Below are positions 11,235-19,178 of a stretch of DNA of 64,000 bases, in pieces. The notes beneath the pieces were generated by a model that saw only the letters and a list, made by a program, of their open reading frames with translations, had not been told where the DNA came from and made no database searches. Source of the DNA: a bacterium (lineage in GTDB: Bacteria > UBA8248); NCBI GenBank assembly GCA_965213625.1, contig CBDBZU010000004.1, positions 58,126-122,125 of the forward strand, read 5' to 3'. Position 1 is the first letter of the stretch, and each line of letters starts with the position of its first letter. A program made the position numbers and the translations under genes.

Positions 11235-12032
11235 TTGAAAATGACCACCGGGACGAGGGGAGCTAGAAACGCCCAAAGGAAGTTCGGTGACCTCCCAGTA
11301 CCTTTGGGTCTGTCTCTGCTCGGCAACCTTCACCAGATTCGTTTTGCGAGGATGCACTGCATACTCGAGAGATGGGCGGATCGATACGGGCCGATCTATT
11401 GCATATCGCTGGGCAGGCGAAATTACGCGGTGGTCTCGGAACCGGACGCCATAGCCCATATACTGGGGAAGCGGCCCCACGGCTTCCGGCGCGAGAAGTC
11501 GAGCACCTGAGACGGTGCTGGGAACGCGCGGCCGATCATGGAGAGGCGATAGACCCCTACCGTGACCTCATGCGCTTCACCGCCCGTGTCACTATGCAAT
11601 TCGTCTTCAGCGTCGACCTCGGCGCGCCCGAAAGTCCCGGCGCATCCATCCGTCACCATCTCGCCGCCATATTCCCGGTGTTGCACCGCCGTCTGAATCT
11701 GCCCTTACCCTTTTGGAGGTGCTTCCGGCTGCCTTCGGATCGAGCGCTCGAACGCGCTCTTGCCGGACTGAAAGCCGAGGTTCGCGACATGATCCGCACT
11801 GCTAAGGAACGAATGGAAGAAAACCCGCGGCGCAGCGTTACGCCTGGGAATTTCATCGAAGCCTCAATCGCCGCCAGAGGATGTGCACGAGCGCCTCTCC
11901 TTCACCATGGCACCCGAGAAACTTATCGTACGCATAAGGCGCAGACAAGGCGCTTCATCCGGTTCGAATTCATCCCTAATCCCTCGCCGTGCCCAGGGCT
12001 ACCACGCGGACGGTCGCGATGCCCGGAGGTGA
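11235..12032 (+). pseudogene. Cytochrome P450 remnant (three fragments in three frames, core deleted)
   Basis: Fragment 1 is the P450 N-terminus (LPVPLGLSLLGNLHQI...WADRYGPIYCISLGRRNYAVVSEPDAI). Fragment 2, frame-shifted, is the middle part (GEAIDPYRDLMRFTARVTMQFVFSVDL...LKAEVRDMIRTAKERMEENP). Fragment 3 from 11877 is the C-terminal tail (EDVHERLSFTMAPEKLIVRIRRR). The I-helix, ExxR and heme loop are absent. Confidence 0.65.
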
Positions 12033-12172
12033 AGATTATCTTCACGCTTTTTCAACAGCCCCGTCAGTGCCTGCCAACAAACGCCGGCACATTCCATACT
12101 TATCCGATAGCACCGGGAAAAGAAGCGTTCGGGAGCTTCAGCTTCCCTCTTAGGAGAGCGTCGTTATCGTTT

Positions 12173-13110
12173 GTCGGGTAGGGCACTGGCGCGCGCACCT
12201 TTAGGCGGAGGGTTTCCAGCCCTGCCCTTTCGGTTCCAGGGTGGGGTCACAGTTCCGCCTTGAGCCACGTTTCCAGCCGCCCCCCCTAAAATTCCGTACG
12301 TCGAGTTTTCCTCGGTACGGCTTCCAGCAACAGGCACCTCCCAGTTTGGAGTGGAGTATTCCGCGGGAACACCGGGGTTTAAGACCGACCCTGCCATACC
12401 CCTCGGCGGGTCCAACGTTTACTCCGCCCTCAGGCTTCACCATGTGCAGAGCGCTTTCCCCCGCCTCTGTGTGCGGGCTGCCCGCCACGGTGTCGCCACC
12501 TGTGCCCAGAGGTCCTCGCTCCGGGTGGGTTGTGTTCTCCCACCCTTCATCGCTTGGCGACCTCGTCCGCCAGTCTGGAGGTCTCCGTCTCACTTCCCGG
12601 CGCCCCGGTTATAAAGACGGTCTTCGACATTCACAGGGTCATCCTGTCATGACCTCCACACCTTCCGGACTTTCACTGCGCTACTTTCGAGTATTGCCGC
12701 CTTCAATACGCCGGGAGCCCCGGTTCGTGCGCCTCAGTTTCTTCTGCACCGGCACTGGCCATCGGTTAGGAGGGAGACCCTTGGCAACTCCATCTACCCC
12801 GCAAATCAGCTTCACGCGGGAAGTCCTTGTTTCGACGCTTCATCCGTTCACTTTCGTTACGGTCCTACTCGTTGCTTGCCTGCCGGGCTGATCGCACACG
12901 AGCGGCACGGCGGCCCCTCTGTACCCCGAGGCTTTTACGTCCGGGCTTCCAGAGCGCCGGGTCGCCCCGTACGTCTGCTGGATATGACTACGGCGCCAAA
13001 CTGAGAATTGCGCCGGCGGGACTTTCACCCGCTAGTACCGCAGTTAGTCTCGCTGCACCCCTCCCGCAGGACTTTCACCAGCTGCACTGACACCAGTTAG
13101 CCTGGCGCAC
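12173..13110 (-). ncRNA. ORF-less group II intron-like RNA (element B)
   Basis: The minus strand starts GTGCGCCAGGCTAAC at 13110. A 34-nt domain V-like hairpin sits at 12323->12290 (AAGCCGUAC CGAG GAAAA CUCG AC GUACGG AAUU, with a 2-nt AC bulge). The element ends ...GCCCUACCCGAC at 12173, with a UA bulge 7 nt from the end. There is no credible ORF on either strand. Confidence 0.45.
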
Positions 13111-13123
13111 ACCCCATCGCTTG

Positions 13124-15399
13124 GTCGGGTAGGAGGGGGCATTGCTGCGCCCCTCCCCCCACAGACCCGAGCGTGCGCGATTGACACACTCGGTTCCTCA
13201 CCTGACAGGTTCGCTCAAGGGGTTGTCACCCTTGCTCCGCAGGTCGAGGCATTCCTCGCCTGTTTGGCTATCCACTGCTGTTTCGTGTACGTGTTGGTGG
13301 AACTCAGAGTTTCCTCCAGCGTTTCCCATCAGTGGCTCTGTACAGATGACGCCCCGCTTCCCTCCAGTGGGTCCCGGTGGCCACGGTTCCCCGCCTTCAG
13401 CGGTACTATCAGGGCGCTACGACTTCCTGCCCTTCTCTAATCGGGACGAGCAAGTCAAGTTCCTCTGCCCTGTTTTTTCCAGCTCTGTTCCGCCTTTGGT
13501 TTTAGACGATACTCCATGGGGGTCTCGCTTCTCTACGTGATCGGCACCCGGTCCGGGGCCGTCAACAGGATGGGATCGGAGAACGAGGTGGAACAATCTC
13601 GCATACGTCCTCGCACCGTCACCGACGGAGCGGAACGGGGCAGGAAGCGAACTCACCTCGTCCCTCGTCCCCACGGGAGCATCCTCCGCCAGATCGGAAG
13701 CTGCCGTAGTATTCGGATTCTTCTCCTCTTGGATTCCCAAGGTCAGGCGGCTACGTCATCCACGCCGTCGCGTTTCCAGCGGAACTCGCTGCCATCCATC
13801 CATATGCGGTGCATGATGACGCCGAGCCGGCGGGCAAGCGCAACCTTCGCGCGCGCCTTGCCGCGACGCTTCGCCACACCCATCGCCCAGGCTTTCAGCC
13901 ATGACCACCGCGTCGTGCGCCCGAGCAAGGCGTTGGCGGCTTCGTAGAGCGCCGCGCGCATCATCGCGTCGCCGCACTTGGAGATTCTTCCCGTTCGGTC
14001 GACCTCTCCGGATTGCCATTTGCGAGGCGCAAGCCCGAAGTGCGCGCCCACCGAGCGCGAACGAGCAAAACGCGATGGCACGTCGACGCTCGCCCGGAAG
14101 GTGAGCGCCGTCACCGGACCCACGCCGGGGACCGTCATCAGGCGACGGCAGACCGGGTCGACGCGCACCGCCTCCAGCATCATCCTGTGCAGCCGGACGT
14201 ATTCCGCCAGCAACGCCGCTCGCGCCCGCAGCATCGGCTTCACCAGGCCCGCCAGCGCCGGGCGCTCCGCGACCAGTCCAAGCACCCGCGCCTCCAGCCC
14301 GCGGCGGGTGACCTTGCCCATCTTCAGCCCGAAGTTGCGCAGCGTGCCCCGGATGTTGGCCTCGGCGTCGCACAACTGCTTCAGCATGAACCTGCGGTTG
14401 GCGAGGAGCATTCGTTTCTCCTGGCTCGACACCGTCTTCACGTGCACCGGGCGAATCAGGTTCGCGCGAACCAGCTGGGCGATCCCGCGCGCGTCGTCAC
14501 GGTCGCTCTTGTTCACCGTCGCAGATAGTATGGCCTTCAACTGCCGCGTCTCGGCGCAAACCACCGGGAGCCCGGCCTCGGCCAGGCCGTCATGGAGCCA
14601 CTGCGACAGCGGCCCCGCCTCAAGACAGATGCGCGTCACGCCGAAGTCCAGCCCGGTGAAGAACGCCGCGAGGGCCGCGGGTTCGCTCGCGACCTTCGCC
14701 TCCCGGACGATCCCGCCGTCCACGTCCACCACGCACACGCTCGTCCACTCCAACGACACGTCGAGTCCTGCAAAGTAGTTCATGACTGCTCCTCCTGCGG
14801 GCGCGTAGAGACCGGACCATCCCGGCCTCGCCTCGATCATATGACAGAGGAACATCCCCTACACGCGGTAGTTCGAGGGCCGACCCGATTATCCCATCTC
14901 GCATCTCCTTCGGCTTATTGTTTTCACCAGCCGGTTCCGCGGGCGCCTGCCGGGTTCGTGTCCGCCATGGGGCGCTCCCGCCGCCGTGCAAGCCCGGCGA
15001 CGGACCGGGGTCTGGATTTTCATGCTGGCCGTCCCCTTTCCAGCGTTCTTGCCCACGGGCAAGAGCAGGATCTCCCAGGTTCCCTGGCGACCCATCCCCG
15101 TAACTTTGCGCCGGTCCACGACCCCGGACGACCCGTTGCGCCTCGCCGATAGCGGCGCTTCCGGTGCTGCCCCCACACGATTAACAATGAAGGCGTCGTC
15201 GATTCACCGATTTCGAGGCTTACCCCACCGCTTCGTCACCTGCTGTCTACGCTTCACGACGCACGTTGCCGCACGCCATGCAAGACTCGCTTCCGGCTGG
15301 CTGGCTTCGCCTTTGCCGGGCGGGAGTCGAACCCGCTGGGTCGCTACGAGAGGTTTCAGGTCATGGCGTCCTCCTCTCCAGGGCTTAGCCTGGCGCAAT
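13124..15399 (-). mobile_element. Group II intron-like RNA (element A) containing an IS110-family recombinase gene
   Basis: Minus strand: a domain V-like 34-nt hairpin at 13196->13163 (GAACCGAGU GUGU CAAUC GCGC AC GCUCGG GUCU). It is followed directly by a domain VI-like hairpin with a bulged UA, ending ...CCUCCUACCCGAC at 13124. The candidate 5' end is TTGCGCCAGGCTAAG at 15399. The IS110 ORF occupies the position where an intron-encoded protein would sit. Confidence 0.35.
13743..14783 (-). CDS. IS110-family (DEDD/RuvC-like) transposase/recombinase
   Basis: MNYFAGLDVSLEW...CLEAGPLS...NKSDRDDARGIA (DEDD N-terminal domain) and PGVGPVTALTF...GLAPRKWQSGEVDRTGRISKCGD (Transposase_20-type C-terminal domain). 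Start chosen at ATG 14783, behind the SD AGGAGGAG; the ORF track extends to 14855. Confidence 0.9.
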   Translation of the reverse strand: MNYFAGLDVSLEWTSVCVVDVDGGIVREAKVASEPAALAAFFTGLDFGVTRICLEAGPLSQWLHDGLAEAGLPVVCAETRQLKAILSATVNKSDRDDARGIAQLVRANLIRPVHVKTVSSQEKRMLLANRRFMLKQLCDAEANIRGTLRNFGLKMGKVTRRGLEARVLGLVAERPALAGLVKPMLRARAALLAEYVRLHRMMLEAVRVDPVCRRLMTVPGVGPVTALTFRASVDVPSRFARSRSVGAHFGLAPRKWQSGEVDRTGRISKCGDAMMRAALYEAANALLGRTTRWSWLKAWAMGVAKRRGKARAKVALARRLGVIMHRIWMDGSEFRWKRDGVDDVAA

Positions 15400-15402
15400 A
15401 AA

Positions 15403-15423
15403 CGTTCGGCGACAGGGTGATGG
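15403..15423. repeat. Left terminal inverted repeat of the IS66-type element
   Basis: Perfect 21/21 reverse-complement match with 18743-18763. Confidence 0.85.
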
Positions 15424-15509
15424 CGCCGGGTTTACTCATTCCGGACTTAAGCAAAAGGTTCTTGTTGAGGGGCTGGTAACATCATCCGGCATGTGGTAAT
15501 CATGTCGGC

Positions 15510-17857
15510 ATGAAGATTTGCACGGAAGGTGTCGAGACGAAGCCGGCGTTGGTCGAGAGGCCGAATGAGCCATGGCCTCATTCCCCTGATTTGTCCACAA
15601 CCGCAGAGGCGTACTGGCGTTCGCAGTACGAGCGCGAGCGTGCGCGCGCGGAGGCGGCGGAGGCGCGCTGCGAGGAGTTGCGGTGGGCGGAAGTGGATTC
15701 GCGCGCCCGTGCGGGTAGGCTGAAGCGGCAGTTCGACGTCTGCCGGAAGAAGCTCGAGGAGGCCGCCGGTGAGGCGAAGGAAGCCCGCCGCGCGGCGAAG
15801 GACGCGCTGTCGCTCAAGACGGAAGTGGAGCGGCTGGAGAAGCTGCTTGCGGAAGCAGGGGTCGAGCCGCGCAAGCGCAGCCCGCTCATGTCGCTGCGCA
15901 TGGAGGTCGTCCGGCTTCGCAAGGAGCTCTCGGGCGTGCCGTCGCCGGGGGAGGCGGGGCGGGTGCGCAAGGCCCTGGAGGAGCGCAGGGAGACGATTCA
16001 TGCCCTGCGCAAGGAGGTCGGCCGGCGGGAGAAGGAGGTCGCCCGGCTGGAGGAGCGACTGGACCGGGAGAAGCAGAAGTCGGCGGCTCACAAAGAGACC
16101 ATCCGGGGCCTGGACGAGGAGGCCATCGGGCTCTACAGGAAGTTGCGGCGATTGCGCGACCAGGCGGAGGTGGTCGAGTCGTTGTCCGCGGAGGTTTACC
16201 GTCTTAAAGTCTCCCTGGGAGCCGCAGGCATCGCGACCGAACGACTGAAGGCGCGGTTGTTGCGCGCAATGGAGGCGGCGCGCTCGAGGTCGCCGTCCCG
16301 TGCGGACGAGGAACTGCGCAAGGCCCTGGGGAGGTCGCGGCGCCAGAAGACGGCGCTCGGGTCCCTGTCCAGGGAGAATGCGCGGCTTCGCCGGGCGCTA
16401 CGCAAGTCAGAGACCCGCCGGGCGCGTCTGGAAGCCGAGCTCGCGAAGCTTCGCGCCACGGGAGTGGTGCTGGCGAAGAGGCTGTTCGGGCGCAAGAGCG
16501 AGCGGCAGGAGAAGCCGCGCTCGGAGCGCAGGCGCGGCGGGCAGCCCGGCGCCCGGGGCCATGGCCGCACCCCTCGTCCCGCGCTCGAGGAGAGGACGGA
16601 AGTTCGCAACCCGCCGCCCGCGTCTGCGCCTGTTGCGGGCAGCCCTACGTGGCCAACGGCGCGCGTGTATCGAGCCTCGTCGAGATCGAGGTCTCGGCCC
16701 ACAAGCGCGTCATCCGCCGTCCGCGGTGGCGCCGGGGGTGCGGTTGCGCGTCGTCTCCCATGGAGGTGTCGGCGCCGCCCGCGCCGCGCCTGTTCGCGGG
16801 CACGTCCTTCGGGACGAGCGTATGGGCGCGCTTCCTGTTCGAGCGCTACGCCTGCTTCCGCCCGCTGCGCCGGGTTGCCGCGTGGCTCTCCGACCAGGGG
16901 CTTACCGTCTCGGCGGGGACGCTGGGTGACAGCGCGCACCGCTTCACGCCCCTGTTCGAGCCGCTGGCCGGGGCGATCCTCGCCCGCCAGAACGAGTCTA
17001 CGCTGCGCCACGGGGACGAGACGACCTGGCGGATACAGTCGCTTCGCGAGCAGGGGCGATCGAGCCGCGCCTGGCTGTGGACATCGGTAAGCACGGACTC
17101 CGTCTACTTCCACGTCGACCCCTCGCGGGGCGCCGGGGTCGCGATGAAGCTGTTCGGCGCGGCCGGCCGCCATACGGTCCTCGTCTGCGACCGCTACAGC
17201 GCCTACAAGAAGCTGGCGCGCGAACTCGACGGCGCCGTAATCCTATCCTTCTGTTGGAGCCACCAAAGAAGAACCTTTATCGACAGCGCGGCCGGCGAGG
17301 CGCGCCTGACGCCGTGGTGCGAGAGATGGATCGGGCGGATCGCCTTGCTCTACCGCCTGAACGAGGCGCGCCTGGCCCGTTACGACTCAGGTCTCGAACA
17401 CCAGGACGCGGCGTTCGACGCGGCGCACGACGAATTGAAGAAGGCGCTCGAGGGCCTGTTCGCGCAGGCCCGACGCGAACTGGCCGCCCTGTCGGCGCAG
17501 GCGCCCGAGGGCAAGGCGCTTCGCTCGCTGCTGAACCACCGCGAGGGGCTGAGCGTCTTCCTCGAGCGCCCCTGGGTGCCGACAGATAATAACGCCATTG
17601 AGAGAGTGCTCAGGGGTCCCGTGATCGGGAGGCGGCTCTCGTTCGGCTCCGACAGCGAGGCCGGCACCGGGTTCACGGCGATGATGTACTCCGTCCTCGG
17701 AACGCTCTCATCGAACGGCATCGACCCGCTCCGCTGGCTCGATGCATGGCTCACCGCCTGCGCGCAGAACGGCGGCCGGGCGCCCGGGGACCTCTCCGCA
17801 TGGCTGCCCTGGTCGATGAATGCGGAGCGCAGGCGCGCCCTCACGGCGCCGGGATGA
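15510..17857 (+). pseudogene. IS66-family transposase (TnpC-type) split by a -1 frameshift near 16612-16622
   Basis: Frame 1 holds a long coiled-coil N-terminus, then LFGRKSERQEKP...GARGHGRTPRPALEERTEV. Frame 2 continues with the zinc-finger CACCGQPYVANGARVSSLVEIEVSAHKRVIRRPRW, DETTWRIQ, VLVCDRYSAYKKL, FCWSHQRRTF and TDNNAIERVLRGPVIGRRLSFGS, which are typical IS66 TnpC blocks. Confidence 0.8.
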
Positions 17858-18734
17858 CGCCGTGATCGAGTGCCGCTACTACGGACGCGACTTCACGACT
17901 GATGAGATGACGCTGCTGCGCGCGCTGATCACCGGCCCTCCCGCGCTCAATCGCAACGTGCTCTCCAAGGAGTTCTGCCGGCGCATCGGCTGGTTCAAGC
18001 CCGACGGCGGACTCAAGGACATGATGGCCCGGGTGACCATGCTCGCCATGCACAGAGACGGCCTGATCACGCTTCCCCCGCCGAAGCGCCCGCGGCACCC
18101 GGCCCGGCCGATCGTCTTCGGGCCAGACACCGAAGCGCCTCTCATCCCGGCGCCCGAGACCCTCGACGAGGTCCGTCCCCTCGGGATGCGCATCGTCGTG
18201 CGTGGAACCCGCGAGGGAAGGCTCTGGAACGAGTTCGTCGCCCGCTACCACTACCTCGGCTACAAGACCCTCGTCGGCGCCCAGATGCGCTACGCCGTAC
18301 ACGACCGCGACGGCAGGCCCCTCGCCATGCTCGGCTTCTCCACCGCCGCGTGGAAGCTCGCCCCGCGCGATGCCTTCATCGGCTGGACGCCCAGGCTGCG
18401 CGAGAAGAACCTTCCCCTCGTGGTCGACAACCCGAGGTTCCTCATCCTGCCATAGATCAAAATCCCCAACCTCGGCTCGCATCTCCTCGCCATCCTTCGC
18501 AGGCGACTGCCCGACGACTGGACCGAGCGCTATGGCACGACCCCCGTCCTCATCGAGACCTTCGTCGAGACGCCACGCTACACCGGCGCCGTCTACAGGG
18601 CTTCAGGATGGATTCACGTCGGAACCACACAGGGACGCGGACGCTACGACAGGTACAAACGCCACGACAAACCCAAAAAGGATGTCTGGCTACGTCCCCT
18701 CCGCAACAACTGGAAGAAAGTCCTCAACCGCTGA
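17820..18734 (+). pseudogene. DUF4338 (Druantia DruA-like) protein gene with an in-frame TAG at 18453-18455
   Basis: ARYHYLGYKTLVGAQMRYAV...LGFSTAAWKLAPRDAFIGW...VVDNPRFLILP[TAG]IKIPNLGSHLLAILRRRLPDDWTERYGTTPVLIETFVETPRYTGAVYRASGWIHVGTTQGRGRYDR. The same frame continues for 93 codons after the stop. From memory, family members carry Trp at the stop position. Confidence 0.7.
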
Positions 18735-18742
18735 AACAACTC

Positions 18743-18763
18743 CCATCACCCTGTCGCCGAACG
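18743..18763. repeat. Right terminal inverted repeat of the IS66-type element
   Basis: Perfect 21/21 reverse-complement match with 15403-15423. Confidence 0.85.
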
Positions 18764-19178
18764 GTTACCTACCCGGCCCCCGACAGGCGCACCCTTGGAT
18801 ACGCAGGCGTTGTAACGAATCCGCTTGCGGTTTGATTACGGGTTATGGAGGGTGGATCTCGGAGACTCGGTAAAAGAAAATGATATCAATATGTTAGATG
18901 GATATGTGTCCAATCGAAACTAGTGGATGCACCTGATTTCTCGAAAAACCCCGTGAATTTGTCTAATTTTATCGATATTTCCAGATATTATTATTTGCAT
19001 ATTTCATGATCTGCGCCTGGACGAATCGCTCACCCGCCTCCATCGGTCCGCGCCCGCTCCATCTCCTGAAAAACCAATGGCCGACGGACGGCCTTCTCAG
19101 CATACCCCATCGCCCCGAAAATCCCGCCACGGCAAATGCGGGTCGAACCCGACCGAGGAGGTCAGTTCCGACCGAGAA

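Follow-up and report, generated by a model that had tools for sequence, protein, structure and literature searches.

Here we describe a mobile-element locus in a 64,000-nucleotide stretch of bacterial DNA (the window, C4:58126-122125 of the 4.15-Mb host genome G000), in which two adjacent intron-like elements, A and B, had been singled out in an earlier note. Next to the left end of an IS66 element, the minus strand very probably carries a decayed pile-up of known kinds of mobile elements; A, an outer stub and an inner intron (B') in it would, as read from their sequences, all be class E group II introns. Both elements are read on the minus strand, and positions are those of the window unless a contig is named. 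The placement given in the earlier note held: A ends ...CCUACCCGAC at 13124, B runs from 13110 to 12173, and 13 nt (13111-13123) lie between them. Likewise, both elements end alike (...CCUACCCGAC) and have little primary similarity, A and B showing none at the BLAST level. The description of B as one element was right in both coordinates, but B consists of the stub followed by B', and A holds a 1463-nt IS110 insertion, both of which had been overlooked. B is a twintron remnant.

Intron A is a class E-type group II intron of 2275 nt (5'-UUGCGCC...CCUACCCGAC-3', 13124-15398, minus strand), delimited by the Rfam model RF02005 and by alignment to a 2029-nt full-length copy at C4:3545955-3547983, to which its lesions were also mapped. 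The Rfam covariance models were run through cmscan, with gathering cut-offs (GA) of 49 for RF02005 and RF02003 and of 40 for RF00029. The core of A matched RF02005 at 15329-15112 (132 bits, E = 2e-38), and its domains V-VI matched RF00029 at 13198-13124 with 32.4 bits (E = 1e-3), a score that falls under the 40-bit cut-off because of the class deviations. In the RF00029 alignment, domain V (13164-13196, minus strand) has 33 nt and reads G-AAC-CGAGU / GCUCGG-G-UC, with a 4-bp upper helix, the loop CAAUC, an AC bulge and the triad AAC in an A.G opposition; the third pair was flagged as non-standard by cmscan. Domain VI and the 3' end (13124-13161, minus strand), supported by the same alignment and by covariation in relatives, carry a U.G basal pair and a single bulged branch A at 13130, 7 nt before the end. 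The exon-binding site 1 (EBS1) of intron A, UAAUCG (15178-15183, minus strand), forms 5 of 6 pairs with the last six bases of the 5' exon, CGUUUA, and the aligned position (~214-222) covaries with the exon in relatives.

Comparison with the full-length copy showed how strongly A has been damaged. Positions 1-502 of A correspond to 1-503 of the full copy, 1966-2145 to 501-680 and 2180-2273 to 1934-2027, so that the last 94 nt are retained. Absent from A are positions 681-1933 of the full copy, nearly the whole open reading frame (ORF) of the intron-encoded protein (IEP; 615-1955). At position 502/503 of A lies an IS110-family insertion sequence (13434-14896, minus strand; transposase ORF 14855-13743, Pfam DEDD_Tnp_IS110 and Transposase_20). 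The insertion is not found in the full-length copy, and its transposase is the sole ORF within intron A. The flanks of seven IS110 copies with 90-95% identity from four other genomes of the genus share the target ..AGA^AG.. and none of them is intron sequence, indicating that IS110 is an incidental insertion and not an intron-encoded protein. The reading of A as an intron whose IEP is the IS110 recombinase was thereby ruled out, given a full-length copy without IS110 and other-genome copies in non-intron DNA. The IS110 element has 8-bp subterminal inverted repeats (TAATCGGG / CCCGATTA), and at least 13 full-length copies were recovered in a search of the genus, spread over five further genomes.

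Several A-type copies are present in G000, and the only reverse-transcriptase gene of this genome lies inside the full-length one. From the lesions seen in its sequence, intron A would almost certainly be inactive now. The single IEP-encoding intron copy in G000 carries UAC in place of the AAC triad (C4:3547909-3547941; L006 2562-2594), and its own ribozyme may be impaired. At C4:907315-907390 we also observed a perfect 16-bp palindrome made from the 3'-terminal bases of an A-type intron (GGCCGGGTAGGCGGGG..CCCCGCCTACCCGGCC); bordering it is the 3' flank of the 3.548-Mb copy in reverse complement, an arrangement that resembles an inversion breakpoint.

The target of intron A was identified as the end of an insertion sequence. 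An IS66-family element (15399-18767; DDE_Tnp_IS66 in Pfam, E = 1.7e-52) with terminal inverted repeats, a broken (frameshifted) transposase and a DruA-like (DUF4338) gene abuts the 5' end of A. The 5' exon of A is the left repeat of this element, read outward on the minus strand as ATCACCCTGTCGCCGAACGTTTA, and the terminal base of the IS66 left end is now found at 13123. A second IS66 copy, whose transposase also matches DDE_Tnp_IS66, lies at C4:510396-513733. Both ends of each copy bear the repeat motif, as do about ten other sites, and the flanks diverge past ..TTAC. Throughout G000 the 5' exon of A-type introns is always ATCACCC..CCGAA(C/T)GGTTA, the motif of the terminal inverted repeat of IS66. 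Repeats that hold no intron run to ..GGTTAC before their flanks diverge, and occupied ones read ..GGTTA|UUGCG...CCCGGC|C; therefore, A-type introns are inserted one base in from the IS terminus, with an outward reading direction. Moreover, the final 10 nt of an A-type intron (CCTACCCGGC; 18768-18777, plus strand) remain at the right inverted repeat of the window IS66, in the context ..GGTTA|CCTACCCGGC|C... Solo pairs of IS66-type inverted repeats were also seen in G000 (C4:519712-519790, 3545832-3545956 and 4124701-4124825), one inward-facing with a 7-bp spacer and the others outward-facing about 76 bp apart. These pairs look like MITE-like or deleted IS66 relics, and they double as intron targets.

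Element B starts with GUGCGCC, and a second 5' end, GUGCAGCG, was located at 13058, so that its 13110-12173 span holds two introns. The first is a 52-nt 5' stub (GUGCGCCAGGCUAACUGG...GGUGAAAGUCCUGCGGGAGGG, 13059-13110, minus strand) of an outer class E intron, here called C-type. The stub shares 83-92% identity with the opening 52 nt of C-type introns from G007, G011, G015, G017, G020 and G028 and at C4:316964, and these relatives score 157-169 bits with RF02005. After base 52 the C-type introns continue AGAAGG.., whereas B instead starts GUGCAGCGAGACUAAC at 13058. An ORF-carrying C-type intron (L123) encodes a 492-aa IEP with RVT_1; its domain V (GAGCCGGAU GCCU UAGC GGGC AC GUCCGGAUC) combines the triad AGC and a G.A opposition with an upper helix of 4 bp, and its 3' end is CCUACCGCAAU. 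The C-type IEP is 41% identical to the A-type IEP, and both are without an endonuclease (En) domain. The cognate C-type IEP is not in G000, where the only reverse-transcriptase gene is A-type.

The spacer between A and B (CAAGCGAUGGGGU, 13111-13123, minus strand) could be assigned from an empty site and from the C-type relatives. Its C is the terminal base of IS66 and position +1 of the 3' exon of A, and AAGCGAUGGGGU is the 5' exon, or homing site, of the outer intron. The unoccupied site at C4:510419(-) reads ..GGTTAC|AAGCGATGGGAT and holds both half-sites side by side, and in related genomes C-type introns follow ..(G)TAA(G/C)CGATGGG(G/A)T. Thus, the 13-nt gap is the distance between two different homing sites and not one shared site. 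Consistent with this assignment, the EBS1 of C-type introns at position 187 (AUCCCA or AUUCCA) pairs and covaries with the 5' exon.

The second intron within B, the ORF-less inner intron B', is 886 nt long (5'-GUGCAGCGAGACUAAC...CCUACCCGAC-3', 12173-13058, minus strand) and was defined by RF02003, a pair of occupied and empty sites, and copies in G007 and G047. Its core scored 46.5 bits with RF02003 at 13034-12852, just under the GA of 49. The copy in G007 (83% identity) is inserted elsewhere in a C-type intron, and the one in G047 lies in a different family of the same class. Comparison of an occupied site (L030) with an empty one (L025, seen in G015) placed the insertion at GAGGGAAGG^AGGAAUCCGUA. 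The EBS1 of B', CCCUCC (12769-12774, minus strand), is complementary to the 5' exon GGAGGG, and three covarying states of EBS1 and exon were found: CCCUCC/GGAGGG in the window, CCUUCC/GGAAGG in G007 and CCUUUC/GAAAGG in G047.

We then derived a consensus fold of domains V-VI of B' with RNAalifold over 5 aligned copies or relatives. Domain V (12291-12323, minus strand; 33 nt) reads A-AGC-CGUAC CGAG GAAAA CUCG AC GUACGG-AAU, with the upper helix CGAG/CUCG, the loop GAAAA, an AC bulge, and AGC with G.A plus an A.A under the triad. Domain VI (12173-12286, minus strand) is a long helix around a structured insertion of ~85 nt, with an A.G or open basal pair and a bulged A at 12179, 7 nt from the 3' end. 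The fold contains 46 pairs, 7 of which show compensatory changes, and such changes are seen in 2 pairs of the domain V upper helix. A search of Rfam at a permissive threshold gave no domain V match for B'; RF00029 fails here because the long domain VI breaks the model, and the hairpin is supported by the homologues instead. The earlier note had proposed aligning homologues to look for compensatory changes, and such changes were found in the upper helix and domain VI of B' and, as purine-pyrimidine (R-Y) exchanges, in domain VI of the A-type introns. The G047 copy of B' (L136, G047:C1:3970081-3970911) is without one 57-nt arm of the domain VI insertion, so this arm is either dispensable or a recent gain. 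B' looks structurally whole and could presumably still splice, but only with a maturase supplied in trans.

Other loci show what the outer intron looks like around B'. At C4:1922271 and in L024, C-type domain I continues after the 3' end of B'; neither the window nor G047 retains any outer intron beyond B'. The ORF-less form of the outer family shares its 3' half with B' (74% identity), and because the 3' halves are homologous, recombination would be the likeliest cause of the loss. Beside this end we noted a remnant P450 reading frame (11372-12181, plus strand) that runs 9 bases into the 3' end of B' from the other strand, which fits a deletion beside the mobile-element pile.

The wider A-type family was examined through the IEP of the full-length copy, which has at least 493 relatives with 63-97% identity in public genomes. 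These come from metagenome-assembled genomes (MAGs) labelled Nitrospinota, Alpha- and Gammaproteobacteria, Thermodesulfobacteriota and Acidobacteriota, and relatives on Bradyrhizobium and Rhizobium plasmids are ~70% identical. The A-type IEP has 446 aa and RVT_1 only, with no En domain; many relatives have 419 aa, and some also carry GIIM. Domains V-VI were extracted from behind the intact IEP genes of 78 relatives belonging to several phyla, and these comprised 28 unique sequences of domain V. The length of domain V is 33 nt in 27 of these 28, and the triad is AAC in 26, UAC in one and AGC in one. The base opposite the middle A of the triad is G in 20, A in 3, U in 2 and C in 2. The triad A is kept while the opposite base varies, indicating that the conserved trait is the triad A and not a purine-purine mismatch. 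Such a mismatch, which had been proposed as a shared feature, is present in A (A.G) and B (G.A) but is not conserved, since G, A, U and C all occur opposite the triad in A-type introns. In domain VI, judged on 38 unique sequences, the basal helix is Y-G-R-G / C-Y-C-G, with R-Y covariation in 38 of 38 unique relatives. The G-G mismatch claimed at a common position of both domain VI helices found no support in this comparison, as the covariation registers give U.G in A and A.G or an open pair in B'.

The A-type introns appear to be mobile. Many occur as 5-7 near-identical copies per genome in differing flanks. A U precedes UGCG at all located A-type 5' ends, across many exons, except for one that resembles a false pattern match. 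The EBS1 hexamer (~214-222) covaries with the last six exon bases through at least 8 states (UAAGCG/..GCUUA, UAAUCG/..GAUUA, UAACUG/..AGUUA, GUUGGG/..CCCAGC, CCAGCA/UGCUGG, UGCAAG/CUUGCA, UGAAGU/ACUUCA and UCGCGG/CCGCGA). The constant U together with this covariation indicates that the 5' end is fixed at UUGCG and that retargeting is active. Among the introns of other MAGs (L053, CBDCME010000043.1, and L057, CBDHDN010000012.1), one of A-type is directly followed by a second (..CCCGGC|UUGCGCC..), and in another the end of domain V is the insertion site of a GUGCGCC-type intron; nesting therefore seems common in the A-type family.

The family departs from the class E consensus in having U1, AAC in place of AGC, and a penultimate G. 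The first and penultimate intron bases are said to interact, an observation credited to Chanfreau and Jacquier in 1993. The A-type combination of U1 with G(-2), which replaces G1 with A(-2), suggests that both bases changed together. Only AGC and CGC are named as triads in a 2015 review. Full-text literature searches gave no mention of an AAC triad, which is no proof of its being undescribed. We put forward, tentatively and as a possibility we hold to be less than even, that the A-type introns are a widespread and evidently mobile class E sub-lineage with an AAC triad, a free opposite base, and boundaries jointly switched from G...A to U...G. If the AAC variant is undescribed, it would be evidence from nature that an active ribozyme tolerates another base in place of the 'invariant' triad G, which U6 snRNA has as well. 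The A-type domain V sequences score 27-39 bits, under the Rfam cut-off, so automatic annotation will miss this AAC-triad UUGCG...GC sub-lineage, the sole part of the locus that perhaps interests ribozyme specialists.

To place the three introns among the known bacterial classes, as the earlier note had proposed, we compared them by eye, base by base, with the class E consensus of 43 introns (Abebe et al. 2013, PMC4028801, Additional file 1, Fig. S1). This consensus has the form 5' GUGCGCCrrGnnA...rnnyArnnGGUGnAA, with the domain V GAGCCGnrU-GCGG-nAAnn-CyGC-An-GynCGGnUC, in which the base opposite the triad G is unspecified, and the domain VI UGUGnGGGGGn-[3-96 nt]-rnnyCU-A-CCnCGAy (PMC4028801); class E IEPs are En-minus (PMC3552965). 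The fit to class E, which has IIB-like RNA, was given by the En-minus IEP and by an RNA consensus that was followed through the 5' end, domains V and VI and the 3' end. As in class E, domain V of A and B' is 33 nt long, its upper helix has 4 bp and its loop 5 nt, a G-U pair under the triad is not fixed, and the 3' end follows CUACC(n)CGAY. The differences are the UUGCG start, AAC for AGC and GC end (AC in the window copy) of the A family, and in B' the extra A.A under the triad and a domain VI insertion that is within but near the top of the 3-96 nt range. B' (GUGCA...AC) and the stub (GUGCG) conform to the general boundaries 5'-GUGYG...AY-3'; the A family has UUGCG...GC and the window copy of A ...AC. 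Two other classes were considered and set aside. Class D (RmInt1-like) was suggested by the 419-aa IEPs, but the domain V/VI consensus fits class E and no Sinorhizobium was among the strong plasmid matches. CL1 was suggested by a UUGCG precedent; here too the consensus fits E and not CL1, although the base of B' domain VI does resemble CL1.

These comparisons bear directly on the proposal that A and B are two diverged copies of one novel intron lineage with a non-canonical core and the same target site. Both hairpins are indeed without a G-U wobble, both have the 4-bp upper helix and 5-nt loop that had been described, and both elements end CCUACCCGAC. However, these traits are the published class E consensus: the helix and loop, the unspecified opposite base and the 3' decamer that had been called non-canonical are all found there (PMC4028801). 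The A family normally ends ..CCUACCCGGC (..CCCGGC), and the window copy has changed the penultimate G to A, which makes its last ten bases the same as those of B; the identical 3' decamer is the class consensus plus this change in A. B is two introns, and A, the stub's family and B' each recognise a 5' exon of their own by EBS1-IBS1 pairing. The claimed common target-site preference was not borne out, as A inserts at ..GGUUA^C, the outer family at ..GAUGGG(G/A)U^, and B' at ..GGGA(A/G)GG^A inside other introns. The reported similarity of the 3' flanks comes down to a common 7-nt word (A[A/G]CGAU..), a weak resemblance between flanks of different origins. Taken together, we consider a single novel lineage improbable.

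Still less credit goes to the idea that the domain V deviations reflect mutational decay in dead copies. A and B are without an IEP, A carries IS110, and the genome has one reverse-transcriptase gene, whose intron, the sole IEP-bearing copy, has the additional UAC triad change. However, these deviations are shared by the ORF-carrying C-type and by intact relatives of which one genome can hold multiple copies and whose EBS1 matches the intron-binding site 1 (IBS1), and the canonical AGC/G-U with a GNRA loop was seen in none of the 78 intact relatives. The earlier view of a lineage architecture, as opposed to random decay, is upheld by the presence of this domain V design in the 78 intact-IEP relatives and in the ORF-carrying C-type. 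Hardly any weight can be given to a third explanation, in which the hairpins are REP-like palindromes unrelated to introns. A repeated palindromic motif is present in the region and solo pairs of it exist, but this motif is the IS66 inverted repeat and lies outside the introns. Moreover, genome searches found the hairpins in intron copies only, and they stand at the expected place in full ribozymes with domain I matches, EBS1 and a bulged-A domain VI. The group II landmarks present in A and B' comprise the domain I-IV core, domain V with its two-base bulge and triad, the bulged A and the EBS1-IBS1 pairing.

Several points weigh against the pile-up of class E introns favoured here. The assignment to class E is a putative one, made from RNA consensus and IEP architecture and not from an IEP tree that includes class E references. 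In the outer-type copy at C4:316952, EBS1 (CCCCUC) and the adjoining 5' exon do not match, so reshuffling has affected some junctions. The locus in the sister genome G007 is not syntenic, with only B' matching, and no intact outer intron was recovered at the window or a syntenic locus. The origin of the 3' flank of B (AAACGATAACG..), which shares seven bases with the C-type homing motif, was not traced, and the pile-up does not account for the AAGCGATGGG(G/A)T that directly adjoins the left repeat, on its outer side, in both IS66 copies.

Based on the element identities, boundaries, targets, class-level conservation, and IS110 and ORF lesions, all shown by the analysis, we infer an order of events for the pile-up. 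Retrohoming would first have placed an A-type class E intron, reading outward, within the terminal inverted repeat of IS66 at 1 nt from the terminus, its EBS1 pairing with the repeat. A C-type copy would then have inserted at its own homing site twelve bases further on, and the ORF-less B' would have retrohomed into C-type domain I after the 52nd base, creating a twintron. The remaining outer intron would later have been lost, most likely by recombination between the homologous inner and outer 3' halves. Intron A would have lost its reverse-transcriptase ORF and taken up the IS110 insertion. With the anatomy corrected, B being a twintron remnant and the IS110 in A incidental, an apparently exotic RNA pair becomes an ordinary, datable retroelement stack. 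The locus also offers clean examples of group II introns that home to the extreme end of an IS66 inverted repeat, and of retargeting through EBS1 change in an intron without an ORF.

Each layer of this stack has a counterpart among known systems. RmInt2, a class D intron of Sinorhizobium meliloti that homes into the inverted repeats of ISRm17 (PMC4615759), likewise uses IS repeats as homing sites, two per IS on opposite strands, and both ends of the window IS66 bear an intron or an intron remnant. Unlike RmInt2, the introns here belong to another class, the IS belongs to another family, and insertion is 1 nt from the IS terminus. The twintrons of Methanosarcina acetivorans and cyanobacteria (reviewed in PMC4424553; PMC4649490; PMC2882425) resemble B in that an ORF-less intron homes site-specifically into a related group II intron, recombination shortens the copies, and the IEP of a related intron is presumed to act in trans. 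In the window, by contrast, the outer intron is a 52-nt stub and the cognate C-type IEP is not in the genome. Finally, UHB.I2, a IIB1/CL1 intron with 5'-UUGCG..GU-3' boundaries (PMC7923331), shares U1 and the penultimate G with the A-type introns, but differs from them in keeping the AGC triad and in having an IEP of another class.

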